Both the position numbers and the translations under genes were made by a program. Positions 1 to 16,125 of a stretch of 16,629 bases of DNA are shown here, piece by piece; within the stretch, counting starts at the first letter, position 1, and each line of letters starts with the position of its first letter. The DNA comes from Promethearchaeota archaeon (lineage in GTDB: Archaea > Asgardarchaeota > Thorarchaeia > Thorarchaeales > Thorarchaeaceae), in NCBI GenBank assembly GCA_027031765.1, contig JALVPN010000061.1, forward strand, positions 1-16,629, given 5' to 3'. The notes beneath the pieces were generated by a model, which was not told where the DNA came from, ran no database searches, and saw only the letters and a list, made by a program, of their open reading frames with translations.

Positions 1-20
1 TCTGTTACCTTTGGTCGCAC
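1..20 (-). CDS. possible 5' end of a divergent gene (MRPKVT...), truncated by the window edge
   Basis: On the minus strand GTG (plus 18-20) CGA CCA AAG GTA ACA GA stays open to the edge, downstream of a minus-strand BRE/TATA-like element at 231-243. Only 6 codons are visible. Confidence 0.25.
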
Positions 21-230
21 GGCGCCCAGATACCCATGCCAGCGAAAACGACACCTTCTGGCATGCCCCGTGGACTGCGTGACCCTGCTGCGGTCAGTGA
101 AGCCTCCACAACCCGGCCCGGTCCGGGCCGTCCTGTTGACTGGCACAGGGCCTCCGGGTTGGGTCCGACAGCCGGGCACTGCGGAGAGTCCATGGACTCC
201 CCTGTGAGCGGCACCGCGTTCTAGCTAGAC

Positions 231-243
231 TCAAAAGGGTTTG
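231..243 (-). promoter_or_regulatory. putative archaeal BRE-TATA promoter pointing toward the window start
   Basis: Minus strand reads caaacccTTTTGA, which resembles the element cgcaacccTTTTCT at 14339-14352. Confidence 0.35.
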
Positions 244-281
244 TACGTAATAGTCTTCCCGGACAGTACAGGCCCCACCTA

Positions 282-295
282 CGAAACAGTTATCA
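282..295 (+). promoter_or_regulatory. putative BRE-TATA promoter of the GTPase-domain gene
   Basis: cgaaacagTTATCA lies 35 nt upstream of ATG 331, which has a GGAGA ribosome-binding site at 324-328. It shares the TTATCA core with 3780-3794. Confidence 0.5.
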
Positions 296-330
296 TGCAC
301 GCCACTATCACCGAGTGCACAAAGGAGAGA

Positions 331-2217
331 ATGGCCCCATTGATAGTGCCGGGCACTACGATTGGCGTGACCCTCATCCCAGGGTTCGTGGAGATTAGGG
401 ATAAGGGTATAGTCAAGAAGCGCATCCCAATCCGCAGGAGGTCATTCGACGACGTACATGCAGACCTGAAGGCCTTCTTCAAAGCCCGTGGCAAGATTCT
501 TGCACCATACGTACTCCAAGATGTCCTCATCAAGATTGGACTCCCAAGGGTAAAGGTCATCCTCGACGAGTCCGACTTGGAAGAATCGGTCGAGGAGCCG
601 ACTGCGCCCTCAGTGGAAACGACTGCAACCACGCCGGACTCCGCTACCACTACTCCCAGTCCTCAGGTGGGTGCGACGTCTCGGCTGGCACTGGCAACCG
701 TACAGACAGGGCGGTCACAGGCAGCAGTACCGGGACCGACCCCGGTGGCAGCAAGTGACACGGACAAAGTTCCTGACAGCAGTGCAGCGGCGTCACCCGG
801 CGTCCAAGTGGCCCGCGCACCAGAAGAGGACACTACTGCGACAGGTGCCACTGCAGCACCAGGGGCAATGACACTGACAGCCTCGGAGGCCACGGCTCCA
901 GGAGCTGGGGGCCCGGCCATGCCAGTCGAGGGTACCGCTGCCGAGAGCGGCGCCGGTATACCACAGGCGGAAACACCGTCTTCCGGGCCAGCTGAAGTGG
1001 CCACTGCGTCCATACCTACCGACCATGGCGCCCCGACTGGCACGGCGAGCTCACAGCGGAGCGTTTCCGAGGAGAGTGGGGCCGTTCCCGCTGCGTCAGA
1101 GGGCCCTGAGAGCGCACCACGAACAGCAGCGGCAACGACGGGTGTGGAAGGATATGATCCGGTGACGGAGGGCACTCCTATCGCGGATGTCGGCCGTGGG
1201 ACGTTTCAACAGGCTGCCGCAGCTGGTCCCACGACGTCTGATGGCGCGGCGCCGTCAGTGGAGGACCCGCTTGCTGATATTCCCGTGTCGCGGCTGAGCC
1301 CGGACGAATTTAGCAGTGTGGAGGAAGCACTGCGTATTGTCGAGCAGCTGGGCGAGTCGTCACTGGTCAGCGCACCTTCTGTCGGGGGGCCGAAGGCAAA
1401 GATACGGGTTGCCGTCCCGACAACGGACGAGATTGCTGCTGCCCCGACCTCTGTTGCGGCCGCGCCGGAGCCGGAAATCCAAGATGAACATGCCACCCCC
1501 GTGGCAGGACTGGGTGAGGAGCAAGGTGTGGTGGTCACTCAGAGTCTGACGACGACGGGTAGGACTGCCGCTGCAGATGGTACGAGCACTCTCGTTGCCC
1601 CATCAGCAGTTGATAGGACGACCCCCTCGTCTGTGACACGTCACGTCGTGAAGCCGGAGGTGTGTGCCAAGGTCATCGTCCTTGGAGAGGACGGTGTCGG
1701 GAAGTCGTCACTGCTGGAGAACGCAGGTTTTGAGGCACCTCCCCACGCAGACGGCTACAGCACCTACCGGGTGGAACGGGTGTTCGAGCTGTCAGAGTAT
1801 AGGGTGAGACTCGACGCGTGGTCCTTTGACGATGCGGTCGGTGCCCGCGTGCGGCGCCGTGAGTTCTATGCCGGTGCCCATGTGGTAGTCATCGTCTTCT
1901 CCGTCTGCGACCGGTGGAGCTTCGAGAGCGTTGAGTTCTGGGTACGTGAAACGCAGCTGGTCAACGAGTCCATGCCGCCTGTCGTCATTGTCGGCAACAA
2001 GAAGGATCTGCGGGAGTCGTATGATGCCGAGTCGGGAGAGCCCCCGGTCTCTACCAAGGAGGCTATTGTCATGGCCGAGAAACTTGCTAGGTCTCTGAGT
2101 CCGGGCGGACTGCACCCGGTCGCATACGTGGAGACGTCGTGCCTGTCAGGCGATGGTGTCGAAGAGGTCTTCGTGACCGCGGCCGAGCTCCACGTCAAGT
2201 CAATCGCTGGTGGGTGA
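331..2217 (+). CDS. multidomain protein: small N-terminal domain + long disordered Ala/Thr/Pro/Ser/Glu linker + C-terminal Ras-superfamily (Rab/Rho-like) small GTPase domain with degenerate G3
   Basis: G1 GEDGVGKS (1684-1707), FYAGAHVVVIVFSV..RWSFE (alpha2-beta4 pattern), G4 NKKD (1996-2007), G5 ETSCL (2131-2145). G3 is replaced by WSFDDA. The ORF track starts at TTG 241, but ATG 331 has a strong RBS (aaaggagaga) and a promoter, giving 628 aa. Confidence 0.88.
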   Translation: MAPLIVPGTTIGVTLIPGFVEIRDKGIVKKRIPIRRRSFDDVHADLKAFFKARGKILAPYVLQDVLIKIGLPRVKVILDESDLEESVEEPTAPSVETTATTPDSATTTPSPQVGATSRLALATVQTGRSQAAVPGPTPVAASDTDKVPDSSAAASPGVQVARAPEEDTTATGATAAPGAMTLTASEATAPGAGGPAMPVEGTAAESGAGIPQAETPSSGPAEVATASIPTDHGAPTGTASSQRSVSEESGAVPAASEGPESAPRTAAATTGVEGYDPVTEGTPIADVGRGTFQQAAAAGPTTSDGAAPSVEDPLADIPVSRLSPDEFSSVEEALRIVEQLGESSLVSAPSVGGPKAKIRVAVPTTDEIAAAPTSVAAAPEPEIQDEHATPVAGLGEEQGVVVTQSLTTTGRTAAADGTSTLVAPSAVDRTTPSSVTRHVVKPEVCAKVIVLGEDGVGKSSLLENAGFEAPPHADGYSTYRVERVFELSEYRVRLDAWSFDDAVGARVRRREFYAGAHVVVIVFSVCDRWSFESVEFWVRETQLVNESMPPVVIVGNKKDLRESYDAESGEPPVSTKEAIVMAEKLARSLSPGGLHPVAYVETSCLSGDGVEEVFVTAAELHVKSIAGG

Positions 2218-2509
2218 GGACAGCCAGAGCTTGAGTGGGTCTGTTCCGGAGTGCGTGAGACAAGGCCCTTCAGTCCGGATGTGTCCTGGAGCACGAGTGG
2301 TGGCCCTCTCGGGCTACCGTTGCGTGAAGGGAGTACGTCGGCCAGCCACTGCTCCCAGTAGGGCCTATAGGCCTGTCCACGGCCCCCGTTCATGGCCTTC
2401 TTGGAAGGGCCTGACCACCTATCTGCGCCGGGAGTGCAGGTACCATAACGCTTCTGTGCAGGAGATGCCTGTCTGGGAAGAGTAAAATACCCATGTTGCG
2501 AGTGACGGC

Positions 2510-2854
2510 GTGGTGCCCCCAGGGGCACACCCCGTGGGTCTGGTGAACGTCAAGGTGGTACTGTGCGAGAGCTGCGGTAACCCAGTGGAGCCTGTTGGCG
2601 CTGCGAAGACCCTTGAAGAGAACTTCACAAACGAGCAGCGCCAGCGCCTACACCTCTGCATATCGTGCTTCCACAAACGTTTCAAAGTGACCACAAGACG
2701 CAGCAGCGGCTATGGCGGGACAATCTACACCCTTGAGCACAAGCCGCCCCCACGGTTCGGTCTCGGTAGCAAGAGGTTCACGTGCCTCAAGTGCGACTGG
2801 GTGGCCTGGACGGAAGCGGGCCTGCGGGCACACATGGAACAGCGTCACTCGTGA
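2510..2854 (+). CDS. small zinc-finger protein (CxxC-x27-CxxC plus C-terminal C2H2 finger)
   Basis: CESC (2564-2575), CISC (2657-2668), and F-T-C-x2-C-x12-H-x4-H (2777-2848) with Leu three residues before the first His. The start is uncertain; GTG 2543 (MNVKVVLC) is equally plausible. Confidence 0.8.
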   Translation: MVPPGAHPVGLVNVKVVLCESCGNPVEPVGAAKTLEENFTNEQRQRLHLCISCFHKRFKVTTRRSSGYGGTIYTLEHKPPPRFGLGSKRFTCLKCDWVAWTEAGLRAHMEQRHS

Positions 2855-3108
2855 CAATGACCCCGGACGGCAACGGCCCTCGGTTGTCGTGAAGTGCTGC
2901 TACACACATCTCACATGCGCCACCATCTTGTGTGGGCCTGACGTATGGGTGTCCATCCCCGGGCGGGCCTCATTGGTCGCAGATGTCAGCGTCAGCGTCA
3001 GCCCCGCGTACGTAGCCATTGTCTGCTGTCCGCTTTCCCCAGTCCGTTGCCGTCGATGTTATACTGTCGGCAGTTCCTGGTGGCGCCGCGAGGCCATTGG
3101 CTGCCCGG

Positions 3109-3735
3109 CTACTCTTTTTCAGTGCGGACTACTTCATGGCCGACAATTGAGAGTCCACTGACCCTCCTGACCGCAGACTCCAGCATCCCCATCCGGTACG
3201 TGGCTGTACGTGCCCCAACACTTTTCAGCCACGACAGCGTTGTGAGGTCAAGCACATCGTGGCTGCGGAAATAGTCCTCAAGGTCGTCGGCTATCCGGTT
3301 GGCCCTGTCGAACATTGCGACGGTCAGGCCGATGCTCGGTGCCAGGAAGCTGAATATCACCCAGAAGATTGCGAAGGGGTCGGTCTCAAGGTACTGGAAG
3401 AAGAAGACGTAGGTGCTCAGTGTCGGCTGTATCAGGGCGAGGATTACAAGGAACAGCGACAGGTTCTGCGTGGCATCGTCACTGCCTAGACCCGCGATAC
3501 CGATTACGTCCTGGTCCGGTGGGAAGAGGTACACGAGTACCGCCCCCGACGCCACGCCCACGGTGACGGCGGACACCACTATCAGGAGCGTGTACTCCAC
3601 GGCCCGCTCCTGCCACACCGCTGGAAAGCTCACGAGCGACTCCACAGTCATGACAAGCGCTATTGTCACTGCCCCCGCGACAGCACCCCAAGTGCTGAAG
3701 AACTCGTAGCGCATCGTCATGATTGGCTCGCTCAT
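3109..3735 (-). CDS. hypothetical membrane protein, 4 TM helices plus ~60-aa soluble C-terminal domain
   Basis: 208-aa ORF with four hydrophobic segments (WGAVAGAVTIALVMTV, YTLLIVVSAVTVGVASGAVLVYLFP, LSLFLVILALIQPTLSTYVFFF, FAIFWVIFSFLAPSIGLTVAMF), an ATG start and a clear upstream promoter. Confidence 0.82.
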   Translation of the reverse strand: MSEPIMTMRYEFFSTWGAVAGAVTIALVMTVESLVSFPAVWQERAVEYTLLIVVSAVTVGVASGAVLVYLFPPDQDVIGIAGLGSDDATQNLSLFLVILALIQPTLSTYVFFFQYLETDPFAIFWVIFSFLAPSIGLTVAMFDRANRIADDLEDYFRSHDVLDLTTLSWLKSVGARTATYRMGMLESAVRRVSGLSIVGHEVVRTEKE

Positions 3736-3779
3736 CGCACGTGCCCCTGACTATTCTATGACCAGATAACTGCATCCAG

Positions 3780-3794
3780 TGATAAACCTTTGCG
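3780..3794 (-). promoter_or_regulatory. archaeal BRE-TATA promoter of the 4-TM gene
   Basis: Minus strand reads cgcaaaggTTTATCA, 45 nt upstream of the ATG at 3735. It matches the archaeal BRE (purine-rich, AAA) + TTTAWA layout well. Confidence 0.6.
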
Positions 3795-4038
3795 AGCCGC
3801 GGCCTGACCAGGCAGAGGTGACACATGTTGGTGGTCAGGCCACCACACACGCCTCCAAAGTCCCGGACTGTCCAAGTCGGGCTGCATGCCGACTGTCCTT
3901 ACTCCCCCACACTGCTCCGGGGGCCCCGTAGGTCGTGTTGTCTATTGGTGTGTCCCACCTCATCACCTGTCCCATCCCGTTGTGCTGAGTCAGAGTCTGT
4001 GCATGGATCCATGATTTGGGGGGGGCGCAGTTCTGTGC

Positions 4039-4051
4039 GTCAACCTTATTA
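4039..4051 (+). promoter_or_regulatory. putative BRE-TATA promoter of the ABC operon
   Basis: gtcaaccTTATTA, about 45 nt upstream of the TTG at 4097. Confidence 0.45.
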
Positions 4052-4096
4052 GTCCTGTACACCTGCGGCGGATGCCGGCCGATGGAGGGCTTCTCC

Positions 4097-4804
4097 TTGA
4101 GCACGAGACCGATTGTAGAACTCCATGATGTGTGCAAGGTCTACTCTCTCGGCGAAGTTCAAGTGCATGCCCTGCGTGGGGTGAGCCTCACTATTGAGCC
4201 CGGGGAGGCGATTGCTATCATGGGGCCCTCGGGCTCGGGGAAGACCACACTCCTCAACTTGATAGGAGCACTTGACAGGCCGAGTTCAGGATGTGTCATC
4301 ATAGACGGTACTGACATCACAGCACTCCCTGAGAGCGAGCTGACTCGCATCCGCAGGGAGAAGATCAGCTTCGTATTCCAGTTCTTCAACCTGCTGCCCG
4401 TGCTGACAGCATATGAGAATGTAGAGTTACCGCTACTCATTGCTGGGATTGAGGCCGCTGCCCGTCGTGAACGGGTCAAGCACCTCCTTGAGTTGGTCGG
4501 GCTCTCAGACCGTGCTGAGCATCGTCCGGATGAGCTGTCCGGGGGTGAGCAGCAGCGTGTGGCCATTGCACGGGCCCTCGCCAAGCCCCGGGCTGACGGC
4601 GGTTCGATTGTGGTACTCGCCGACGAGCCGACAGGTGACCTCGACACTCACACTGGAAACGAGGTCATGGAAGTGCTGATACAGCTGACCCGGGAAGAGG
4701 GCGGCACGCTTATCGTGGTCACCCACGATCCCGACGTTGGCAAGCGTCTTGGTAGAGTGTACCGTATGCGCGACGGCATGGTTGAGGGCATAGACTCGGG
4801 GTGA
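4097..4804 (+). CDS. ABC transporter ATP-binding protein, LolD/MacB/FtsE (type VII) family
   Basis: Walker A GPSGSGKT, Q-loop FQFFNLL, signature LSGGEQQRVAIARAL, Walker B/D-loop VLADEPTGDLD, H-loop VVTHD. TTG 4097 follows GGAGGG at 7 nt; ATG 4082 is the alternative start. Confidence 0.95.
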   Translation: MSTRPIVELHDVCKVYSLGEVQVHALRGVSLTIEPGEAIAIMGPSGSGKTTLLNLIGALDRPSSGCVIIDGTDITALPESELTRIRREKISFVFQFFNLLPVLTAYENVELPLLIAGIEAAARRERVKHLLELVGLSDRAEHRPDELSGGEQQRVAIARALAKPRADGGSIVVLADEPTGDLDTHTGNEVMEVLIQLTREEGGTLIVVTHDPDVGKRLGRVYRMRDGMVEGIDSG

Positions 4805-4811
4805 TCCTGCT

Positions 4812-7556
4812 TTGGCATTGCCGGCTACATACGAGGCCTTCCAGAACAGGAGGCGGCTCATGGTCACCCTGCTGTGCTTCTCCCTCATGTCGGCAATGAC
4901 CATGGGCATTGCCGTCTATATCGACTCCTACTCTGTCCACCTGTGGCACCAGTATACCGACATCCAGGCCCCGCCACTCCTCGTGTCAGGCCGCATCGTC
5001 GAGTCGATTCAGGACGGGATACTGTCAGTCGACGGGGTCGTCAAGGGTGCACTCCTCCCACGTATGTACTGTCGTATCTCTCGCAGCTACAACGACACGT
5101 TCTACGAGTTCGGTATGAACATGATTGGATACGACAGTCACTTCGTTGAGACCTTCCCCGACTTCTTCAACATCGCAGAGGGGCACCCACCTACCGGTCC
5201 CCGAGAGGTCTGCTTGGGCCCTAGGATGGAGGAGTTCCTCGACGCGGGACCGGGCGACCTTGTGAACCTCACCCTTGACCACGAGGACGAGCCGGTCACC
5301 GTGCTTGTCGTGGGGACGTACACTACAGTATACGAGTCGGTGCCGGGGTTTGGTCCTGCCGGCGGCTATGTCCTCATGTCACCTGACCTCTACGCTGGCT
5401 ACTGGCTCGACAGTGTCATGATATGTGAGGTCGACAGGTCACCACTGACACCCTTTGATGCACGCGGGTCGCTGAACTATCTCTACAACATCGACGAGTC
5501 CATCCGGATGCTTGACCCGAACTACCAGTCCAGGTCGTGGTCGGAGCTGGTGATTGATGACCTCCTCTTCAATGCCGTTGCCAACTTCATCTCGTGGCAG
5601 TTGAATGCACGGCTGACACAGTTGTTCCGTGCTGGGGGGACAGTGGTCCTGTTCATCATGCTGGATGTCCTTGCCATCCGCTATAACCTCTCTGAGCGGA
5701 GGCGTGAAATCAGCATGCTCCTGGCCCGGGGCGCCGACCGCAAGATGATTGAACGGGGCATATGGCGCGAGGCCATCCTTGTGACTCTGGGGGCCACCCT
5801 GGTCGGGCTCCTAGTAGGTGTGCTGCTCAGTCGTGTTGCACTGGCCAGCACCGGCTTTCTCCAAATCGACCCCTCCCTCGTGTTCACCGAGTACTTGTTG
5901 GTGTCGCTGGACTCGCTCATCATGGCTGTGATTACAGGGGTGCTGCTCCCACTGTTCTCCCTGTTCCTCTACCGTCGCTATACTGGCAAGCGGGAGTCAC
6001 TACGGGTCAGTCAGGGCCGTCTCGCCAAGCTGGTGAGGGGCCTCGAAATGGTGCGTTGGGATGTGCTCGCGCTCGTGTTGGCCGGACTGCTCATGTTCTC
6101 ACTCCAACAGATGGGGCCCATCCTCCGGTTCATGCCGCCCCTCATGCTCCTACTCTCCATTCTGCCCCTACTCGTGCTCGCGGCCGTTGCAAGCCTGACG
6201 GTCAAGGGCCTGCGTAGTGGTGCCACGGCGCTCTCCCACCTGCTGTCCCCGGTCTTCGGCGGGGTTCCAGCACGGGTCGGCATCAGGAGGGTAGGGCTCA
6301 CGGCGCCCTCCGCGGGAGCAGTGGCCACCGTCCTCGTACTGACCGTCAGTCTAGCATGGGGTGCCTCGGCTGTGGCCGCCACAACGCCCGTCACACTCCT
6401 CAACCAGCTGCGTTTCGCCACCGGCGCTGATGTCGCCATGTACGTAGAGCAAGAGGCGATAGACCAGTACCCAGAGCTGCTGGCGAACACCACAGCACAC
6501 CCCGACGTCACATCAGCCACGGTCGTGCGGCGGTTCGGCCTCTACCTGTCCACCGGGTATGGCGGGTACACACCCTTCGTCGGGATCAATGCCACCGAGT
6601 TTTCCGACGTTGGGTACGACTTCATGGGTGTCAGGTTGAACGAGTCGCAACAGTCTGAGCTCTTCCACCGTCTCACAGTTGAACCAATGGGCGCGATTAT
6701 CACCACTGAGATTGCGAGCGCATACGACCTTGAGCCTGGCGACCCCCTCCGGGCCTATACCCCCTACTCGGAGAATGCCAGTTCCATTGTCTTCAAGGTA
6801 CTCGGGGTGGTGGACGCTCTGCCCTGTATACCCATCTTCGACCCATATGGTATGTACTCGTGGTGGAGCGTCGCCGGTTCGGACGTGGTCTGTGTGAACT
6901 ACGACTACGTGGTGTCGCACATGGATGCGCCTGAGGATGCAGAGTGCATGGTCTGTGCAGCGGTGAGGCCCGACGGCAATGAGACCCGCGTCCTTGAGGA
7001 GCTCATGGATGCCGGTGCGTCTTCTGTCGTCCAGACTGGTTATGCGGCGGCCCCAAGGGCCATGTTGGAGGAGTACATGTCCTCGGAATACTATCACATG
7101 GACCGCGCTGTCGACACCATGCTGATGGTATCTCTTGCAGCTACGATCGTATCAATGTTCATCGTGTACGCTGCGGAAGAGCTGCCGGCACGTCGCCGTG
7201 AGATGGCGCTGCTGAGGGCAGCGGGCGCCCCCGGCTCCCTGGTCACCCGTGTCTTCGTCGCCGAGATGTCCGTGCTGTTGCTGGTCAGCCTCGGCCTCCT
7301 CGTCGTGTTTGCGCCGCTGTTCCTGTCAAACCTGATGTCCACTCTCTCCGTCTACTACAGTCCGGTCCCGTTGGTCTTCCCGGTCATGGTGTTCCCGGTC
7401 TATCCAGTCGCGGGCATGGCCCTGGTGCTCGTGCTGCTCGTGGTGACCGCACTGGTTGCCATTGCTGTCATTGCCCTCTATGCTGCACGCATCAGTCTTG
7501 CAGAGGCACTGAACGCCTCGTGGGCAGAGGCGGGCCCCTACGGAGGTGAGCTGTGA
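4812..7556 (+). CDS. FtsX/MacB-like ABC permease, internally duplicated (two extracytoplasmic domains, two FtsX TM blocks)
   Basis: N-terminal NRRR + TM1, large soluble domain, FtsX motif RRREISMLLARGA (5697-5735), further TMs, a second soluble domain and a second motif RRREMALLRAAGA (7191-7229). It starts 7 nt after the ATPase stop. Confidence 0.92.
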   Translation: MALPATYEAFQNRRRLMVTLLCFSLMSAMTMGIAVYIDSYSVHLWHQYTDIQAPPLLVSGRIVESIQDGILSVDGVVKGALLPRMYCRISRSYNDTFYEFGMNMIGYDSHFVETFPDFFNIAEGHPPTGPREVCLGPRMEEFLDAGPGDLVNLTLDHEDEPVTVLVVGTYTTVYESVPGFGPAGGYVLMSPDLYAGYWLDSVMICEVDRSPLTPFDARGSLNYLYNIDESIRMLDPNYQSRSWSELVIDDLLFNAVANFISWQLNARLTQLFRAGGTVVLFIMLDVLAIRYNLSERRREISMLLARGADRKMIERGIWREAILVTLGATLVGLLVGVLLSRVALASTGFLQIDPSLVFTEYLLVSLDSLIMAVITGVLLPLFSLFLYRRYTGKRESLRVSQGRLAKLVRGLEMVRWDVLALVLAGLLMFSLQQMGPILRFMPPLMLLLSILPLLVLAAVASLTVKGLRSGATALSHLLSPVFGGVPARVGIRRVGLTAPSAGAVATVLVLTVSLAWGASAVAATTPVTLLNQLRFATGADVAMYVEQEAIDQYPELLANTTAHPDVTSATVVRRFGLYLSTGYGGYTPFVGINATEFSDVGYDFMGVRLNESQQSELFHRLTVEPMGAIITTEIASAYDLEPGDPLRAYTPYSENASSIVFKVLGVVDALPCIPIFDPYGMYSWWSVAGSDVVCVNYDYVVSHMDAPEDAECMVCAAVRPDGNETRVLEELMDAGASSVVQTGYAAAPRAMLEEYMSSEYYHMDRAVDTMLMVSLAATIVSMFIVYAAEELPARRREMALLRAAGAPGSLVTRVFVAEMSVLLLVSLGLLVVFAPLFLSNLMSTLSVYYSPVPLVFPVMVFPVYPVAGMALVLVLLVVTALVAIAVIALYAARISLAEALNASWAEAGPYGGEL

Positions 7557-10360
7557 TGTTCCTGACGAGTCGTGTGGCCGCCCGCTGGGGCCAAGCACTT
7601 GTCACCGTAGTGGTGTTCTCGCTGGCTTCTGGAGTGGTCGGTGGGCTGCTGTTCTACATGGGGAGCTCTAGCTATGATGTCATCTCGACGCTGGCGGCGG
7701 AGAGTCCTGTAGACATGGACATCACTTTCTCGTCAACGTTCTACAGACAGGAGAACATCACCGTACAGGACGTACGGGACACAGTCCTAAGTATGGACGG
7801 GGTCGTTGCTGCCGACGTGCTGACCGCGGTGGAGTCAACAGAGTTGGACGCGTTCATAACGCTGGGGCTCAATGCCACTGTGCTGGAGACCTTCCCCGAT
7901 GCCCTGGACATCCCTCCAGGGACGCCGTTCCCTAATGAGAGCACCTGTCTGCTTGAGTCTGACTACTTCTGCAATATGGGCTATGAGATTGGTGACAACT
8001 TCACCCTTACAGTGATGCACTGGCAGCCCGGTGTTGGGATTATCACCGTCCGCAGGAACTACACAGTGGTGGGTGTGTTCGACTCCCACATCTACAACCC
8101 TCAAGAAGAAGAGCGCCAGTACACATATCTCCCGGTACTCAGAGTCGTCACCTCACAGGCCGGGCTGGACTCCCTCGCGTCAGAAGTCGGTCACGACCGC
8201 TATGAGGCCCCATTCCACAAGATCTGGGTCAAGTTCGACCGGGCATCGGTCTTCCACAACAGCCCGGCGGAGCTCGCGCAGTCGCTCCAAGAGTCCGCGC
8301 GACGGGTGGAGCAGGAGTTCCTCCCACACGTTGTTGTGGAGCGCTTTGCCCTCCTCGAGGCTGTAATGGCCTACAGCAGCTGGTCTATGAGCATGACCGT
8401 GATAATGGCAACGTTCTCTGTCCCAACGGTCATCATGGGCCTGATGCTTGTCAAGTACGACTCAACACTGGTCGCGGAGGACGAGCGCCGTGATGTAGGC
8501 ACGGTGAAGACGCGGGGCGCCTCGCGACTACAGGCGTTCTCGTGGGTGCTGGGGGATGCGGTTCTTGTCGGTTTCCTGGGCAGCCTTGGCGCAGTGATGC
8601 TCGGTGCCACGGCTGCATGGCTGGCTGGTGGTGTCCGCGGCCTCCTCAATATTGACCCGTCGCTGTTGTTGGGCTTCCGTGTGTTGGTCTCACCTATGGC
8701 CACTGTGGCAGTCTTCGTGTACTCGTTTGCTGTCGGCCTCGTGGTCGCGCTGCCTAGGGCGGTACGTGCATACCTGATGTCGCCTGCTGAGGCCCACAGT
8801 GTGATTGAGCGTGAGAGCCTCCTACAGGAAGAACAGCTCGGCACCCCGACGCTGGAGGTGCTGGCCGTCGCATTTAGCGGCTATTTCCTAGGCGTGTTCA
8901 TGTTCTACGCCGCACTGGCAATGCAGCAGGGCTTTGGAGCACCGGTCTCCTTCCTTGCCGGCGCCTCACCGTTGATTGTGGTGTTCGCAGTGGGCACCGT
9001 CCACCTGCTGTCGCGGCCTGCCCACCGTGCCAAGTCGTGGGTCTTCGGGAAGCTTGCCCGTGGCCATGTGGCGGTAGGCATGCAAGTGCTCAGCAGGATT
9101 GCAAGCATCTCTAGGAAGAGCGAGGCGCGTGCAGTTATGTTCATGGCCTTCGTGTTCACGACCGGCATTTTCGCACCGGTGGTGGCAACAACGGCTACCG
9201 TGCACACCCGTGACCTCGTCATGTTCGAACACGGGGCCGATATTGTCGTGTCGGTGAACCCGCTTGCCACGAACGTCACGCTCGACATGGTCGACAACAT
9301 CACGTCGATTGATGGCGTCCGGGTGGCGAGTGGAGCATTTGTGACATCTGGCCTGGTGTACTACGTCGAGGCAGCGACAGTTGGCTATGAGGTGTTCAAC
9401 AGGTCAATCACCATCGTCGGTGTGCAGCCCGACCTGTGGGCACAGTCCGCCTACTTCAGACCGTACTTCACAAAGGAGCTCGCACCTGATAGCGCACTCC
9501 ACCAGCTGGCGGCCGACCCGTCAAATGTGCTCACCAACTTCAAGCCGGTGGAGAGATATGTTGTCCGGAATGGCATCACCACCCCGGTATATGGCAACAG
9601 GATTCGTGTGGGTCTTGTGGGCCCCAGATGGAAGAACTGGAGCGACTGCACAGTTGTCGATGTCATGTCCCAGACCGAGGCCGACTACACCCCGACGTAT
9701 CTGCCAGGGTATTCGGGTCTCGGCAGTTTTGTCGTCATGGACCTGTCCTACGTCCACCGGTGCCTGAACACGACCCGTATCTCGAAGGTCTACGTTGCCC
9801 TTGAGGACGGTGCCAACAGGACCGCCGTGGTGGAGTCCATCCGCGCCCTCTCACTGACCGGCTTTGCGTCTGTTGTGTGTACGCTCGACTTGTTGGACGA
9901 CTTTGCAGCCCGGCGTACCACACAGGCATCACTGGGGACGTTCACTCTCGACCTAATATTCACTGTGGGCTACCTCACCTTCGGGACTGCAATTGCCACG
10001 GCTGTCAAGTCCCGCAGCACGCGCCGTCAGATGTCTGTCCTCAGGGCACTGGGCTGCGACCGGCAGTGGCTACTGGTGCCTGCTGTCGTCGACGTCCTCG
10101 TCTCGCTGGCCCTCGGACTACTGATCGGGGCCTTTGTATCCGGAGTGCTCGCGTCGTTCACGGTCGTGGTGCCGTTCTTGGACACCAGTCACGTGACGCC
10201 CCTCAGGTGGCTCAGGTTGCCGGTCCTGGTGGAGATCCCGTCCCTCCTCCTCGTTGCTGTGCTCGGGACATGCGTGGTCGTCGCAGTGGCGGCCTGTGCG
10301 GGTGTGACGTGGCGCTCGCTGAACCGTAGCATCGCGCAGGAGGTCCAATATGCGGAGTGA
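7553..10360 (+). CDS. second FtsX/MacB-like ABC permease, internally duplicated
   Basis: Same layout, with motifs RRDVGTVKTRGA (8486-8521) and RRQMSVLRALGC (10022-10057). It overlaps the upstream stop (GTGATG) and has an SD sequence GGAGGTGA at 7542-7549. The start is GTG 7553 or ATG 7556. Confidence 0.92.
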   Translation: MMFLTSRVAARWGQALVTVVVFSLASGVVGGLLFYMGSSSYDVISTLAAESPVDMDITFSSTFYRQENITVQDVRDTVLSMDGVVAADVLTAVESTELDAFITLGLNATVLETFPDALDIPPGTPFPNESTCLLESDYFCNMGYEIGDNFTLTVMHWQPGVGIITVRRNYTVVGVFDSHIYNPQEEERQYTYLPVLRVVTSQAGLDSLASEVGHDRYEAPFHKIWVKFDRASVFHNSPAELAQSLQESARRVEQEFLPHVVVERFALLEAVMAYSSWSMSMTVIMATFSVPTVIMGLMLVKYDSTLVAEDERRDVGTVKTRGASRLQAFSWVLGDAVLVGFLGSLGAVMLGATAAWLAGGVRGLLNIDPSLLLGFRVLVSPMATVAVFVYSFAVGLVVALPRAVRAYLMSPAEAHSVIERESLLQEEQLGTPTLEVLAVAFSGYFLGVFMFYAALAMQQGFGAPVSFLAGASPLIVVFAVGTVHLLSRPAHRAKSWVFGKLARGHVAVGMQVLSRIASISRKSEARAVMFMAFVFTTGIFAPVVATTATVHTRDLVMFEHGADIVVSVNPLATNVTLDMVDNITSIDGVRVASGAFVTSGLVYYVEAATVGYEVFNRSITIVGVQPDLWAQSAYFRPYFTKELAPDSALHQLAADPSNVLTNFKPVERYVVRNGITTPVYGNRIRVGLVGPRWKNWSDCTVVDVMSQTEADYTPTYLPGYSGLGSFVVMDLSYVHRCLNTTRISKVYVALEDGANRTAVVESIRALSLTGFASVVCTLDLLDDFAARRTTQASLGTFTLDLIFTVGYLTFGTAIATAVKSRSTRRQMSVLRALGCDRQWLLVPAVVDVLVSLALGLLIGAFVSGVLASFTVVVPFLDTSHVTPLRWLRLPVLVEIPSLLLVAVLGTCVVVAVAACAGVTWRSLNRSIAQEVQYAE

Positions 10361-10366
10361 TAGACT

Positions 10367-11266
10367 ATGAGTGAAGACTTGGAACAACTGGCTTCGGAGT
10401 ACAAGGTGGTGGTCCGTGACCTGATGAAGGTCTACAGGCGGGGTCTGAAGGAGGTCATCGCTCTCCGTGGCATCGACTTTGAAGTGCGTGCCTCGGAGTT
10501 CATCTCCATAGTGGGGCCCAGTGGGTCGGGCAAGTCAACGCTCCTGAAGATGATTGGTGCGCTTGACCGTCCGACCGCAGGCCTTGTCCTCTTCGAGGGC
10601 TTCAATGTCACCCAGCTCGACGACGTGCGGGCGATGGAGTACCGGCGCAACAAGGTGGGGTTTGTCTGGCAGGTGGGCAACCTAGTGCCGGGCCTGACGG
10701 CACTGAAGAACGTGATGCTACCAATGCGCCTTGCTGGCAAGAAGAAGTCCGAGGCCGAGTCGAGGGCAAGGGAGCTACTCCAGCGAATGGGCCTCAGTGA
10801 CCGCATGCGGCACAGGCCACACCAGCTCTCTGGCGGTGAGAACCAGCGTGTTGCCATCTGCGTCGCACTTGCGAACAGTCCCGAACTCCTACTTGCAGAT
10901 GAGGTCACGGGTGAGCTCGACACCGAGACCACAGACCATGTCATGGAGGCCCTGCGTGAGGTGAACCGTGACCTTGGTACCACCATCATCAATGTGACCC
11001 ACAACCCCCGGGTCGCGAGCTACGCCGGCCGCGTGCTCAGGATCCGGGACGGTCTCATTGAGGGGCAACGACACACCCTTTTCGGTGACATAAGCGAGGT
11101 CGACGCCAAGGGGCGGCTGGTGATCCCTGAGTCGGTGCGCCGACTTGCGGGTATCCGGAAGCGTGTTGTCCTAAGGGTGGTGCCCGAGGGCCTCCTCGTC
11201 GCACCACTGGAGTCCGTTGGCGAGAACAACAATGACGACGCGTCGGACGCTGAAGGGCACGGCTGA
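10367..11266 (+). CDS. ABC transporter ATP-binding protein (LolD/MacB family) with C-terminal AbrB/MazE/MraZ-like domain
   Basis: Walker A GPSGSGKS, Q-loop WQVGNL, LSGGENQRVAI, LLADEVTGELD, VTHN. The C-terminal extension ISEVDAKGRLVIPESVRRLAGI..RVVLRVVPEGLLVAP (11087-11212) fits the swapped-hairpin barrel pattern. Confidence 0.93.
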   Translation: MSEDLEQLASEYKVVVRDLMKVYRRGLKEVIALRGIDFEVRASEFISIVGPSGSGKSTLLKMIGALDRPTAGLVLFEGFNVTQLDDVRAMEYRRNKVGFVWQVGNLVPGLTALKNVMLPMRLAGKKKSEAESRARELLQRMGLSDRMRHRPHQLSGGENQRVAICVALANSPELLLADEVTGELDTETTDHVMEALREVNRDLGTTIINVTHNPRVASYAGRVLRIRDGLIEGQRHTLFGDISEVDAKGRLVIPESVRRLAGIRKRVVLRVVPEGLLVAPLESVGENNNDDASDAEGHG

Positions 11267-11280
11267 CAGGAGTGTTGGTC

Positions 11281-11556
11281 TTGACTGGTCAGAGTACAGT
11301 CCCTACCCGACTCCCGTTCTCCTTCTACGCAGTGCTCGTCACGTTCGGCGTGTTCTTCGCAAGTGTCCTCATCTATGTGATGACACGGCTGCTGGACCAC
11401 CCGTGGGCGAGTGACCTCTGGCTCGTGGGTGTCACAGTTGGCGCAGTCGGTCTGGTGGTGTCCATCCGTCTTGTCCGCCGCGACCAAGAGCGCATGGTCA
11501 GGGAACGGGCTGCACGCGGGGGCCAACAAGAGGAGGGGGCGGAGTCCCCGGCATAG
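11281..11556 (+). CDS. small hypothetical 2-TM membrane protein
   Basis: Two hydrophobic helices (FSFYAVLVTFGVFFASVLIYVM; LWLVGVTVGAVGLVVSI) followed by an Arg-rich tail. AGGAG lies 8 nt before TTG 11281; the ORF track uses GTG 11272. It directly follows the second ATPase. Confidence 0.7.
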   Translation: MTGQSTVPTRLPFSFYAVLVTFGVFFASVLIYVMTRLLDHPWASDLWLVGVTVGAVGLVVSIRLVRRDQERMVRERAARGGQQEEGAESPA

Positions 11557-11829
11557 TCCGGCTGCCAGCAGTGCCCAGTATGAGTGGGGCGACCTCGGTG
11601 CGCCCACCCCCGCCGGGTAGACATCCTCTGTGAGCCGGCCCTCTACACGCGCCCCCCGTGCTACGGGCTCTTGCATCCGGAATAGACATAATAGGACCAA
11701 CTGAGTACTCACCACAGGGACTGCTCGGGCCCAGCAGACGACAGGGGCGCCTGTGATGGGCACTGGTGCACGTGGGGCCCGGTACCACCTGGGCTCTGTC
11801 CGGGACTGACACAGCATGGTCATGCAACA

Positions 11830-13122
11830 GTGAGTGGATATCAGATGGGGTCAAGTGATGGAGCAAGACGACCAGCACTTGCGGGAGCTGGAGCGACGGC
11901 CCGCGACTACGCCGAGTTCTCCAACGAGAAGGTGCTGTTCATTCTCAACCGCCACACAGGACTGGCACCGTACTCGCACGAGTTCGTACCACATGGTATT
12001 GACCCTCAGGTGATGTCTGGTTTCGTGCAGGCCATGTCAAGTTTCATGGGGGAGGTCACGGGGACTGAGGAGACCCGTTGGGAAACAGTGTATGGTAAGG
12101 GTAACTCCTTCATAGTCGAGGGTGGCGAGTGGTCCATGGGCGTCATGGCGGTCAGTCGCAAGACCGCGGAAGTGCGTAGCCGCCTCCGGAAGGTAATCCG
12201 AGAGTTTGAAGAGAGCTACTCGTGCCTGCAGACATGCGATTCCTTTGACGGGAGCCTCTTCAGGGAGTTCGACAGGTTCGTCCAGCGTGTGTTCACAGAG
12301 GACAGGGTTTCCGGCCGGACGGTTGTGCTCAAGGGTGTCAACTGGCGGCAGGTCTCACGACCATACGTCTCTCCCAGACGAGCCTACAAGGTCACCAAGT
12401 TCCTCGTCCGCGTGCGGGACGGGCAGACCGTTGCAGAGGCTGCCGAGTGTCTGGGCTACTCCCTTGCTGAGGCGAAGGCACTGATATCAGACGCCTTCTG
12501 GCACAATGCGGTATTCCTGTTGTACGTGCCACGCGACGATGACATCCTCGAACTGTCAGAGGGTGCTTCTGCATTCATATTCGACCCGGACAACCCCCTT
12601 GGTATCTCGCCTGTGACCATGCGTCTGATAGGACTCCTCGACGGTAGGGTCTCTCTTGGCAAGCACCTTGAGGTGCTCGGGCTCGGTCAGAACGAGGCCG
12701 TGCTCGTTGAGCTGGGCGCCCTGATCAACCGTGGCTATGTCCAGAGGGTGCCAGTGGAACAGGTCCTCGTGCTCGCAAACGAGTGTACGCTGACCCATCT
12801 GCTAGAAGAGTACGGCTCCATAATCGGCTACACCCGTATCCGCGCCTACCTCGACAGCCTCTGTTCGGACGGCGTCCCGAATCAGCCATGGGTGTGCAGG
12901 GTGCGGGTCACTGACGATATGCGTGTGTACTGTCCACTGAACGAGTATCTCTCTCCCACTGAACTCGACATGGCCTACGACGCCCTCGAGCTGCTCATCA
13001 ACGGCCTCGTCGAGCGGGTGTCAGATGTGATTGGTGCGCAGCGTGCACGCGAGGTCCACTCCACCGCCCGCTACGAGTGCAACAGGAAGTGGGCCAGGTA
13101 TCTGGAGTCCGTGACAATATGA
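11830..13122 (+). CDS. Asgard-type longin-like domain protein with two winged-helix-like repeats
   Basis: VLFILNRHTGL..YS....IDPQVMSGFVQAMSSF..E followed by a beta-hairpin and EVRSRLRKVIREFEE (11926-12294) is the longin pattern. HTH-like segments lie at 12385-12522 (DGQTVAEAAECLGYSLAEAKALISDAFWHNAV) and 12610-12750 (LDGRVSLGKHL...LGALINRGYV). ATG 11845 is an alternative start. Confidence 0.78.
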   Translation: MSGYQMGSSDGARRPALAGAGATARDYAEFSNEKVLFILNRHTGLAPYSHEFVPHGIDPQVMSGFVQAMSSFMGEVTGTEETRWETVYGKGNSFIVEGGEWSMGVMAVSRKTAEVRSRLRKVIREFEESYSCLQTCDSFDGSLFREFDRFVQRVFTEDRVSGRTVVLKGVNWRQVSRPYVSPRRAYKVTKFLVRVRDGQTVAEAAECLGYSLAEAKALISDAFWHNAVFLLYVPRDDDILELSEGASAFIFDPDNPLGISPVTMRLIGLLDGRVSLGKHLEVLGLGQNEAVLVELGALINRGYVQRVPVEQVLVLANECTLTHLLEEYGSIIGYTRIRAYLDSLCSDGVPNQPWVCRVRVTDDMRVYCPLNEYLSPTELDMAYDALELLINGLVERVSDVIGAQRAREVHSTARYECNRKWARYLESVTI

Positions 13123-13241
13123 GCCCCCCTACAACAACATCGTGGTACTGGTACAGGTAGTACCGACCGTCCGGCGCAGGCGGGTGGCCCCGGTACTGGC
13201 ACATTGCCGTGACGCGTAGGTCCCACAGATGCACTGCCCGT

Positions 13242-14105
13242 CTATCTGTTTGCTGACAGCCCGACAATGAGCCGTCCCATCGACCTGAGCACCAGCTCTC
13301 GTGTCAGTCCTGCCGCCGTCGTTAGGTCTCCCGCCTCAATGATATGGCACCCCGCCTGTTTCCCACGTCCAACGAGGTACTCTTGGATTTCTCTCGTGGC
13401 TGCAAACTCCTCCTCCCTGACCTCAGTACGGTTGTCGACCGTGCGGAGTCCTGTGAGTCCCTTGCTAAGGAACATGGCCCGGTGCAGCTCCTCGGGTGGG
13501 TTGAGCACCACCTCCAACACATTGTCGCCGTTCCTGCTGTCCTCAAGCGTGCCCGGTACTAGATGGACACCCTCCACAACAGCATCGACTCCCTCGTATA
13601 TGACCCTCGCTACGAGTCCCGATATTGCTGGCTGCATCACAGCACACTGGGCAAGGTAGCCACGGACCGCCCTGTTCAGCCCCTCTGGCCCGGCCCTCCT
13701 ATACTTGTGTGCCTGATACGTATGGCAGAACAGCTCGGGGTACTGCTCCGCAGAGAGGACGGCTCGCAGGACCTGTCTCACTGTGTCTGTCGTCACCGTG
13801 CGTGTCGGGGCGAGGCACTGCACCATCTCAAGGGCCACAACGGACTTCCCGGTGGCGGAGGCACCCTCCAGCGCCAGCACGATGGGCCTGACAGTCCCTG
13901 AGGCCCTGAGCCTGTCGTACTCCAACACTATGCGGAGCCCATCACGGTGGTCTGATCCCACAACGTCAATGGCACTGTCATCGGGCCATGCGATACCGTG
14001 CGGCACCTCTGGCAGTGCGGCCAGCACCTGTTCGCGGGTGGAAGCATCGAGCCCGGCAAGCCTGAGTCTGCTCTCCACCACGACTCTTGGTGTACCTCTG
14101 ACCAT
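13242..14105 (-). CDS. 2-phosphoglycerate kinase family P-loop kinase (COG2074-like)
   Basis: PIVLALEGASATGKS (P-loop 13842-13865), TDTVRQVLR, PELFCHTYQA, VVEGVHLVPG and REIQEYL all match family motifs. SD sequence AGGTGA lies at plus 14115-14120. Confidence 0.85.
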   Translation of the reverse strand: MVRGTPRVVVESRLRLAGLDASTREQVLAALPEVPHGIAWPDDSAIDVVGSDHRDGLRIVLEYDRLRASGTVRPIVLALEGASATGKSVVALEMVQCLAPTRTVTTDTVRQVLRAVLSAEQYPELFCHTYQAHKYRRAGPEGLNRAVRGYLAQCAVMQPAISGLVARVIYEGVDAVVEGVHLVPGTLEDSRNGDNVLEVVLNPPEELHRAMFLSKGLTGLRTVDNRTEVREEEFAATREIQEYLVGRGKQAGCHIIEAGDLTTAAGLTRELVLRSMGRLIVGLSANR

Positions 14106-14338
14106 GTTGTCCCATCACCTGCACTCGTATCTGCACACTGTTGGAGAGGGTGACATGCGTCAGCACGGGTGGTACGGCCGTCCCGGTCCGGTCAGTCCAG
14201 GCTCTCCCACACACGTTTTGTGTGTTGTGGTCCAGCCGTCCGTTTCAATGACATGACCCCTGTCGGTGCCCGCCGTGGCGGGACGGTCCGCAGTGGTCTC
14301 AGCACTGGACTATCTCCACCGCGGACTAGCTACATGTC

Positions 14339-14352
14339 CGCAACCCTTTTCT
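14339..14352 (+). promoter_or_regulatory. putative BRE-TATA promoter
   Basis: cgcaacccTTTTCT, about 50 nt upstream of the likely start of the following membrane-protein gene. Confidence 0.35.
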
Positions 14353-14401
14353 TGTCCTGCTCTTGAATCTGGGTGGTGTGAACTCGACTAGAGGACTGGT
14401 G

Positions 14402-16009
14402 TTGCACTTGAACCGGAGAAACCTCATCCATGCAGTTGCCCTGATTGTGGCGGCGACCATTCTGTTCTCTGCTGCTGTTGCGCGTGCCCAGCCACCATCG
14501 GAACAGTTCATTGGTGGTGAGGACGACCCGCTACGGGTGTACCTCGCCCTCGACAGGAGGAGCGTCACAACCGCTGACGAGGACCACCCCATCCCCGTCC
14601 ACCTCGACAAGCTCATGCTACTACACATGCAGATCAACACGACAAGCGTTCATCCGCTCAATATCACGGGCATGATTACCTTCCTCTACCAAGGTTTCGA
14701 AGTCCTGCCAATCACCATTGTGAACCCGGAGAACAACAGGCCGTGGGTGGTCATCCCGCCTAGTGTCCAGATCGAGCCCATCGATGTATACATCAACTGG
14801 AGTCAGGCGCTCTCTATGGGCCCGGTGGACCTCATGACCGGTCTGTTCGAGGCCACTGTGAACTTCACCTACCAGGACATGGAAGACCCCGGTATCTCTG
14901 GTGTCATAGGTACTCGGTTCTACATGCTAATTGAGGCCTCCCTGATGGAGACCATCACCTCAGTCGCAGGCATTGCCACGGTGGCAGTCACAGGTGGTGC
15001 TGTCTACGGCCTCGGCTCGAGCATCTGGCAGCTGATTGACGGGTTCAAGACCGCATACAAACTACGTGGCATCCAGAAGAAGGCCTCCGAGATAAAGTCA
15101 CTACCAAACCTCACTGTGATTGGGGCACTGCCTCCACTGTTCACCCTACTTGCGTCACTGACACAGATGCGCACCACTGAGAAGGCGGAGGGTCATAGCA
15201 GCGCTGTCAGTGAGTATATGGTACGACAGAGACTCCGTGAGGTCGCTCCTAGTGCATGGCCCAGGAACCGCTGTCCCAAGTGCAAGAAGTCGTGGCCAAA
15301 GGACGAGGACACCTGCAAGAAGTGTGGGATTGACGAGGCCGAAGCGCGCCGGGAGTATGCGGAGCTCCTTGCATCGAAGGTGCCCTCCGTCATCAAGCTC
15401 CTCGGTAAGAAGAAGTCCATGTCGATAGACATGATTGCTAAGAAGACCAAGTCCAGTCAGTACAATGCCGGTGTCATCGCTTCGGCGCTTGTCGACACCG
15501 GCCTGACCGAGATCCAGAAGGTCAGGACACCGTTCCGGAGCTTTGTGACCAACCTGCTCGGGGTCGTGTTTGTCGTGCTGACGTGGCAGCAGCTACTGGG
15601 TGACAAGGCCAGCCACTGGCAGACCACCCTGACCCTAATGGGTGCAGCCCTTTCTGTAGGGGTCATAGTAGCGCTCTATGTCGCACGCAAGACACAGATA
15701 GAGAAGCTCCACATTGATACTGAGGGCCGGCCCAGTGGACTGACGCCCGCGACCGCTGACACGGGTGAGGAGTCACTGGTCTATGAGAGCGAGGACGAGG
15801 GCACTGGTGAGACCGAGACCGAGGCCGCTGGTCCCGGTGGGGGCGAAGGGGCCGCCCCGCCTGACAGTGCTCCTGCTGGTGGTGATGAGGAGGGCGGACA
15901 CGCTGGGGGCAGTGACGCGGACAGCGGCAGCGGAGGGTCTCCTCCAGAGGACGCAGATGCGCGTCTCCCATCGTTGACACCCGAGGAGCTTGACCGCGAG
16001 CGGGAATGA
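14402..16009 (+). CDS. membrane protein: signal peptide, extracellular beta-rich domain, TM, CxxC-x10-CxxC zinc ribbon, winged-helix-like domain, TM hairpin, acidic disordered tail
   Basis: Signal peptide NRRNLIHAVALIVAATILFSAAVARA/Q (cleavage near 14488), TM about 14954-15037, CPKC..CKKC (15272-15325), HTH-like 15377-15523, two TMs 15542-15685, E/D/G/A/P-rich tail. The start is TTG 14402 (GAGGA 6 nt upstream); 14363, 14378, 14399 and 14408 are alternatives. Confidence 0.85.
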   Translation: MHLNRRNLIHAVALIVAATILFSAAVARAQPPSEQFIGGEDDPLRVYLALDRRSVTTADEDHPIPVHLDKLMLLHMQINTTSVHPLNITGMITFLYQGFEVLPITIVNPENNRPWVVIPPSVQIEPIDVYINWSQALSMGPVDLMTGLFEATVNFTYQDMEDPGISGVIGTRFYMLIEASLMETITSVAGIATVAVTGGAVYGLGSSIWQLIDGFKTAYKLRGIQKKASEIKSLPNLTVIGALPPLFTLLASLTQMRTTEKAEGHSSAVSEYMVRQRLREVAPSAWPRNRCPKCKKSWPKDEDTCKKCGIDEAEARREYAELLASKVPSVIKLLGKKKSMSIDMIAKKTKSSQYNAGVIASALVDTGLTEIQKVRTPFRSFVTNLLGVVFVVLTWQQLLGDKASHWQTTLTLMGAALSVGVIVALYVARKTQIEKLHIDTEGRPSGLTPATADTGEESLVYESEDEGTGETETEAAGPGGGEGAAPPDSAPAGGDEEGGHAGGSDADSGSGGSPPEDADARLPSLTPEELDRERE

Positions 16010-16028
16010 CCCTGTGCAGACTGGTGCG

Positions 16029-16054
16029 ACGGGCAGCTGTCATTGGCTGCCCGT
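16029..16054 (+). terminator. GC-rich hairpin downstream of the membrane-protein gene (terminator or operator)
   Basis: Perfect 9-bp stem acgggcagc / gctgcccgt with an 8-nt loop, 19 nt after the stop at 16009. There is no U-tract. Confidence 0.35.
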
Positions 16055-16062
16055 GTCTCAGT

Positions 16063-16076
16063 CCCAAACATTGAAA
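16063..16076 (+). promoter_or_regulatory. putative BRE-TATA promoter of the flavoprotein gene
   Basis: cccaaacaTTGAAA, about 50 nt upstream of ATG 16126. Confidence 0.35.
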
Positions 16077-16125
16077 GACCCGACCCCACAAGGGCGCGCG
16101 CCAGAAGAATTGGAGCGCAAGAGCA

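Follow-up and report, generated by a model that had tools for sequence, protein, structure and literature searches.

A gene from the Asgard order Thorarchaeales whose small-GTPase domain has lost its G3 motif belongs to a conserved family; most likely it is not in decay but encodes a binding module that does not switch. It lies in a 16,629-nucleotide stretch of DNA (contig JALVPN010000061.1, positions 1 to 16,629), which we call the window. Sequence comparison and structure models lead us to consider it fairly likely that the domain is a Rab-derived, Mg-independent, non-hydrolyzing and non-switching guanine-nucleotide binder that prefers GDP and serves as a docking module on a tether. Two parts of this reading can be graded separately: the family is very unlikely to hydrolyze GTP or to switch, and it probably still binds a guanine nucleotide, because the G1 Ser/Thr, the G2 Thr and the G3 Asp and Gly are lost and G4 and G5 are fixed. 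An earlier note, made from the DNA letters alone, had proposed a switch-dead domain repurposed as a nucleotide-bound interaction module; this remains the best reading, and the G3 loss is indeed under selection, but what that note said of G1, G2, the basic patch and the RGK proteins has to be amended as described below. The features of the window that bear on the argument are as follows.

340..2217, forward strand: whole gene, about 625 amino acids, open reading frame; start most likely TTG 340 (ATG 331 possible)
343..570, forward strand: basic N-terminal domain, conserved, 76 amino acids, no known family (alignment A2, 65% mean column identity)
571..1275, forward strand: low-complexity linker 1, 68% P/S/T/A/G
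1276..1443, forward strand: conserved linker island, an acidic amphipathic helix followed by a short beta-type motif (alignment A4)
1651..2214, forward strand: Rab-like G domain, complete fold (Pfam Ras, E 2.9e-19; model pLDDT 94.6)
1684..1707, forward strand: G1 P-loop, canonical in this lineage only (GK[S/T] in 7 of 71 orthologues, Lys in 70 of 71)
1729..1731, forward strand: probable guanine-stacking Phe, putative equivalent of Ras F28 (mostly Leu in the family)
1762..1764, forward strand: candidate G2 Thr, out of register (3 of 71 orthologues, 1 of 35 paralogues)
1819..1836, forward strand: replaced G3, W-S-F-D-D-A (in orthologues W 71/71, F 70/71, D 69/71, A 71/71)
1837..1869, forward strand: remaining switch II, with an invariant Arg (ancestral) and a conserved aromatic pair
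1909..1929, forward strand: DRWSF signature after beta4, invariant DRWSF-type; candidate binding surface
1996..2007, forward strand: G4, NKKD ([N/T]KxD in 106 of 106 members)
2131..2145, forward strand: G5, ETSCL (Ser in 105 of 106)
2510..2854, forward strand: small zinc-finger gene, downstream (beside 42 of 42 orthologues checked)
3109..3735, reverse strand: convergent membrane-protein gene (beside 42 of 42 orthologues checked)

The open frame at 241-2217 holds bases 1822-1860, which encode SFDDAVGARVRRR. We take TTG 340 as the most likely start because the conserved N-terminal motif is directly preceded by an NTG codon in all 23 orthologues checked, usually about 12 bases 3' of a GGAG; in the window, a GGAG precedes the start at 324-327. 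Non-ATG starts (TTG, CTG, GTG) predominate in the family (window 340-342; orthologous loci L002-L024), and public gene calls are therefore often truncated or over-extended. Read from its sequence, the protein consists of a basic N-terminal domain, a low-complexity linker with a conserved island, and a C-terminal G domain. The N-terminal domain is modeled with three strands and two helices (pLDDT 81) and carries 15 K/R against 8 D/E. It is without a recognized family: a Pfam search gave no match, a comparison with PDB sequences gave nothing below E 0.4, and Atlas gave no feature match, an absence of matches that does not make the fold new. Its best fold match is a ribosomal chain (Z 5.1), followed by three further ribosomal chains (Z 3.7 to 4.5), all under the tool's own trust level, and its shape matches in Atlas (TM 0.65) are parts of unnamed bacterial proteins. 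We rejected CCDC53/WASH-type repeat proteins as homologues, since those profile matches add up weak repeats, none of them above 8.4 bits, and likewise a PB1-domain match that was not significant (E 0.59).

The spacer between the N-terminal domain and the island helix is 255 amino acids long here, the longest among the orthologues measured (40 to 145 in the others), so that the helix begins 40 to 255 residues past the N-terminal domain in orthologues and 15 residues past it in paralogues. The window's own copy of the island (1276-1443) is a degenerate version. A complex prediction combining the mid-linker motif with the G domain, the N-terminal domain and GDP returned "no answer" (score 0.00), which is evidence neither way. 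The N-terminal domain and helix also occur without a G domain, in short proteins of one genus (open frames of 134 to 182 amino acids; L157:1173-1400, L158:2613-2840, L159:3078-3305, L160:2818-3045, L146:2121-2348 and L147:5191-5418). A stand-alone protein of about 77 amino acids (L161:2886-3113, reverse strand) matches the N-terminal domain weakly (29 bits), has no Pfam match and adjoins a gene that by eye resembles glycyl-tRNA synthetase. Elsewhere, a 609-amino-acid open frame (L156:3018, reverse strand, genome G341) joins the N-terminal domain to a much more divergent G domain (40 bits).

The family is confined to one order among the genomes searched. A profile of the N-terminal domain matched 77 of 87 genomes of Thorarchaeales and 0 of 313 other genomes of the phylum, and a G-domain profile found members in 79 of the 87 and none outside, with a clear gap between family members (at least 141 bits) and ordinary Rab-like GTPases (at most 113 bits). 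One 97%-complete genome of the order (G009) gave no family match by profile. After removal of duplicates we aligned 106 members, comprising 71 orthologues (clade A, a count that includes a sister-family member) and 35 paralogues (clade B). In a quick IQ-TREE run, the inner order of which is uncertain, the family forms one clade (SH-aLRT 99) on a long stem off canonical Rab-like GTPases. Homologues are annotated as Candidatus Thorarchaeota proteins, either "Rab family GTPase" or "hypothetical."

The fold of the G domain is that of a small GTPase. The last 188 residues match Pfam Ras above its cutoff and match structures of Rab5, Rab1 and Ypt1 by sequence (E about 1e-13). The model has the six strands and five helices of the Ras superfamily (Z 21 to 22 to Rab and Ras); among solved structures, Thor-Rab (7EZB) comes closest in fold (Z 22.4, rmsd 1.7 Å over 156 residues), and many Rab and Ras entries score within one Z unit of it. 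HMMER aligns beta3 and switch II without gaps to Rab1a (2rhd) and Ypt1 (1yzn) and sets SFDDA on DTAGQ, so the claim that G3 is destroyed, with its Asp, Gly and Gln positions all replaced, was correct. In 105 of 106 members, the beta3 Trp and the switch II Tyr stand the canonical 17 residues apart, and within this frame neither DxxG nor the Gln occurs in any of the 106; the G3 Asp is in register in one member, and the RGK-type G3 (DxWEx) is absent. In the AlphaFold model (pLDDT 94.6), beta3 (residues 51-58) runs straight into a helix (59-64) and not into a DxxG loop. The pattern goes beyond chance: of 17 other small GTPases in the same genome, the G3 Asp survives in 16, the Gly in 16 and the G1 Ser/Thr in every one. 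Odd G3 motifs were seen in two other GTPases of this genome (G000), DMGSQ with a shifted Gly and SATGQ in an MglA-like protein without the Asp (contigs C135:1518-2054 and C40:81639-82340).

The remaining nucleotide motifs have fared unequally. The earlier note had called G1, G4 and G5 intact, and for G4 this holds without exception. For G1 it describes the window's protein, whose P-loop by its sequence is among the least eroded in the family, but not the family as a whole: 64 of 71 orthologues and all 35 clade B paralogues lack GK[S/T] (present in 7 of 106 members overall), the Mg-binding position in the remaining orthologues is R, E, K, H, G or Q, and the P-loop Lys is lost in 31 of the 35 clade B paralogues and in the sister-family member. 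The two glycines of the P-loop do not vary across the family. G5 keeps its Ser but is better called near-canonical, reading SCL instead of SAK or SAL in the window's protein; across the family its Ala has given way to Cys, Thr or Ser. The Thr codon at 1762, put forward as G2, is where it was said to be, but it stands three residues off the canonical position (counted back from the beta3 Trp) and is rare among orthologues. The RabF1 stretch (IGxDF) is absent from the alignment, as had been noted, and with it a defining mark of canonical Rabs. The conserved hydrophobic residue after helix 1 (Phe here) lies 9 residues past the Lys rather than at +12, where 12 of 14 Rab-like paralogues have Phe, so that helix 1 is one turn shorter. 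Family members carry an acidic insert after G4. The protein ends right after helix 5 without a Cys, and the prenylation Cys of eukaryotic Rabs is thus not present.

Switch II beyond the replaced motif combines old and new features. The basic patch (RVRRR) reported earlier exists, with four K/R over seven positions in the window's protein and an average of 3.1 in orthologues, but it is partly inherited: the family-invariant Arg at its center also occurs in 12 of 17 canonical paralogues of the same genome, and clade B is nearly neutral at these positions. The P-loop Lys goes together with the new switch II Asp: 69 members have both, 32 have neither, and none has the Asp while lacking the Lys; in one further homologue (P0034), Arg replaces the Lys and the Asp is kept. 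This co-occurrence fits a Lys-Asp contact but goes back to only two or three independent losses. The beta4-alpha3 segment, with a pN/pS of 0.03, is the most constrained region tested.

Selection on the domain is strong. Median dN/dS of the G domain is 0.079 across 16 independent orthologue sister pairs (dS < 1.5) and again 0.079 over nine paralogue pairs; these values come from relatives, the window's own protein being too distant from its nearest relative, with silent sites saturated. At the five replaced G3 codons, orthologue pairs differ by 30 synonymous changes and 0 nonsynonymous ones. Loss of G3 is thus shared throughout the order and maintained by purifying selection, which answers two of the checks that had been proposed, the one on whether the loss is conserved or strain specific (no member has an in-register DxxG, so it is conserved) and the one on dN/dS. 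The retention of DxxG by orthologues, named beforehand as a refuting outcome, was seen in 0 of 106 members. Strain-specific decay, a pseudogene or an assembly error is left with a negligible probability. Only the unusually long low-complexity linker of the window's copy speaks for it; 71 orthologues share the same replaced motif, with open frames, dN/dS of about 0.08 and conserved synteny, and the orthologue alignment refutes strain-specific decay.

In canonical small GTPases, the Mg ligands are the G1 Ser/Thr, the G2 Thr and the G3 Asp; the gamma-phosphate is detected by the G3 Gly, and guanine recognition falls to G4 and G5 (PMC4359372, PMC5593906). In a non-switching binder of the kind we favor, the guanine base would be held by the invariant G4 Asp and Lys and the G5 Ser, and the alpha- and beta-phosphates by the P-loop backbone plus the Lys. 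The new invariant Asp (1828-1830) would lie at the gamma-phosphate side, possibly paired with the P-loop Lys, and such a pairing may favor GDP over GTP. Binding would probably be weaker and faster exchanging than in Ras, because there are no Mg ligands and helix 1 is shortened; the full G1 of the window's protein means that weak Mg-nucleotide binding is still possible there. The conservation of G4 and G5 is not proof of nucleotide binding, since the same residues form a structural hydrogen-bond network, and the loss of the P-loop Lys in 31 of 35 paralogues shows that some of the family can do without phosphate binding. A rigid switch II together with the DRWSF surface would dock a protein partner regardless of nucleotide state. 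The basic N-terminal domain may serve as an anchor on a polyanion, whether a membrane, nucleic acid or an acidic protein, and the linker, predicted to be disordered, would be a long flexible tether with the fixed docking surface at its far end.

With G2 and G3 absent and the fold intact, the domain falls within the published definition of a pseudoGTPase (PMC5593906), and the question becomes which kind. Invariant G4 and G5 combined with lost Mg ligands point to class ii, which binds nucleotide without catalysis; the degraded G4/G5 typical of class i is not seen in the family. A class i protein would have a closed pocket (for example, through a Lys-Asp pair), would bind no nucleotide and would act purely as a scaffold, with fungal dynein light intermediate chain (LIC), CENP-M, AAGAB and p190 pG1 as parallels. 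We consider this unlikely, yet it draws on real features of the family: the Mg ligands are all lost family-wide, purifying selection persists in the paralogue clade and the sister-family member where the P-loop Lys is gone, and the pocket of fungal LIC is shut by a contact between P-loop and switch II (PMC4359372). More broadly, p190RhoGAP pG1/pG2, CENP-M and AAGAB reuse the GTPase fold for protein binding, as is proposed for the family. However, G4 and G5 are degraded or displaced in p190 pG1 and AAGAB, where nothing binds (PMC5593906, PMC12490416), whereas G4 is complete in 106 of 106 family members and two P-loop glycines are invariant. The opposite alternative, an atypical but active GTPase or switch on the model of RGK proteins or MglA, would need its missing residues to have migrated (DAVG, the conserved Asp, the switch II Arg) or to be supplied by a partner, and strikes us as very unlikely. 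The window's protein taken by itself invites the idea, with its full G1, a Thr close by and a shifted DxxG (DAVG, 1831-1842), and RGK proteins hydrolyze GTP despite divergent motifs (PMC5593906). Across the family, though, the shifted DxxG is found in 2 of 106 members, the Thr in 4 and GK[S/T] in 7; the switch II Arg is ancestral; and the MglA-like paralogue of the same genome that lacks the Asp keeps both the Gly-Gln and a G1 Thr. Because so few members carry DAVG and it is predicted to lie in a helix or at the end of one, we take it as incidental and rejected it as a migrated DxxG.

A further alternative turns on whether occupancy changes in the cell, which is all that separates it from the GDP-preferring binder we favor and otherwise overlaps with it. 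Here loose, Mg-independent binding would report the guanine pool (GDP, GMP or a ppGpp-like compound) through empty and filled states. Base-reading motifs are invariant and phosphate-reading motifs erode stepwise, as a metabolite sensor would predict, and a phosphoribosyltransferase gene stands head-to-head with the gene at all 36 orthologue loci that reach that far. The whole block is syntenic, however, so the neighbor may reflect gene order alone, and the paralogues sit elsewhere, beside an LRR gene; we regard this alternative as quite unlikely. A wider synthesis would join several of these elements: a near-core Thorarchaeales guanine reader, Mg free and independent of eukaryotes, that lost its switch stepwise (G3 and G2, then the G1 Ser/Thr, then the P-loop Lys) and combines metabolite-tuned docking with a basic anchor of a new type in an archaeal signaling or membrane system. 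As a whole it is a tentative proposal, and an unlikely one.

Comparison with known systems narrows the precedents for a non-switching binder. Thor-Rab (7EZB, 7EZD, 7EZE) and Rab1, Rab4 and Rab11 share with the family the fold, G4, the beta3 Trp and the switch II aromatics, and Thor-Rab, like the window's protein, has no C-terminal prenylation Cys. Thor-Rab binds GDP/Mg and GTP-gamma-S and hydrolyzes GTP like Rab11B (PMC10933270). Unlike these proteins, the family lacks DxxGQ, the G2 Thr, IGxDF and, in most members, the G1 Ser/Thr; its helix 1 is shorter, and it has the acidic insert after G4 and an N-terminal extension of 200 to 440 amino acids with its own domain. Metazoan dynein LIC is likewise Ras/Rab derived and has a P-loop and G4 without DxxG, forming a GDP-bound, non-switch binding module. 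Human LIC1 has no DxxG in the equivalent loop and prefers GDP, with stability as the proposed use, and fungal LIC went on to lose the P-loop Lys and all binding (PMC4359372), a loss that parallels clade B. LIC differs in its large inserts, its N-terminally placed G domain and its binding of dynein; the window's protein gave no match to the DLIC family in Pfam, and LIC was absent from the listed fold matches, which were filled by Rab and Ras entries. By analogy, and not by membership, LIC is the closest functional precedent, more so than RGK.

The RGK proteins (Rem, Rem2, Rad, Gem) share the Ras fold, altered G2 and G3 and an intact G4, and Rem1 (2NZJ) matches the fold at Z 21.6, tied with many Ras and Rab entries. 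RGK proteins retain the Asp of G3 (DxWEx) as well as the G1 Ser/Thr, and their C-terminal tail binds calmodulin; the Thorarchaeales family shows none of these features. Their choice as a model in the earlier note was a weak one, since they are classed as still catalytic (PMC5593906, Table 2). Judged by the defining motifs of the Rab and RGK families, the protein belongs to neither. A likeness to Rnd proteins would lie in nucleotide binding without hydrolysis, which the Thorarchaeales family putatively shares. Rnd proteins keep their Mg ligands and are locked on GTP; with the Mg ligands gone, a tight GTP-locked state is unlikely in the family. Rnd proteins are placed among the class ii pseudoGTPases, which bind nucleotide without hydrolysis (PMC5593906).

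Pseudo-GTPases are a known kind of protein (PMC5593906, PMC12490416), and Rab-like GTPases of Asgard archaea are already known as well (PMC10933270, PMC4915359). Small GTPases of Asgard archaea are generally taken for ancestral Rab-like switches, and the single Thorarchaeota protein that has been assayed is enzymatically active (PMC10933270). Our literature search, outside which most subscription journals lay, found no publication on this family or on any Asgard or archaeal pseudo-GTPase. If our reading is correct, a whole Asgard order maintains a dead switch under strong selection; the conversion of GTPases into adaptors, as in dynein LIC, CENP-M and AAGAB, would then not be limited to eukaryotes, and counts that ignore motifs would put the number of Asgard switches too high. 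Members of the family, moreover, range from a full G1 through loss of the Ser/Thr to loss of the Lys, a natural gradient for testing which G motifs nucleotide binding requires.

The gene neighborhood is stable around orthologues, with ABC-transporter genes further along in orthologous loci, but since the whole block is syntenic, the neighboring genes show no functional link. The phosphoribosyltransferase gene that usually lies upstream was not found in the G000 assembly (tblastn, E under 1e-20); it is probably unassembled, because the window starts at a contig end. Clade B copies have a different setting: they usually stand head-to-head with an LRR gene, and some form tandem pairs. Near many of them lie a gene that by eye resembles aspartyl-tRNA synthetase and an ESCRT-II-type gene (Pfam EAP30, E 6e-7; N terminus Vps28-like by eye), for example at L135:3-674 (reverse strand), L032:668-1471 (reverse strand) and L150:5996-6820, an association that may be gene order only. 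Farther along the window, positions 11830-13122 (forward strand) encode a 430-amino-acid protein without a Pfam match whose N-terminal 130 or so residues look longin/roadblock-like by eye; longin and roadblock domains regulate small GTPases. Positions 13242-14105 (reverse strand) encode a P-loop protein that by eye resembles 2-phosphoglycerate kinase and has only weak AAA-type Pfam matches, and positions 14363-16009 (forward strand) encode a predicted 548-amino-acid membrane protein with a double zinc ribbon (weak Pfam DZR match) and an acidic disordered tail.
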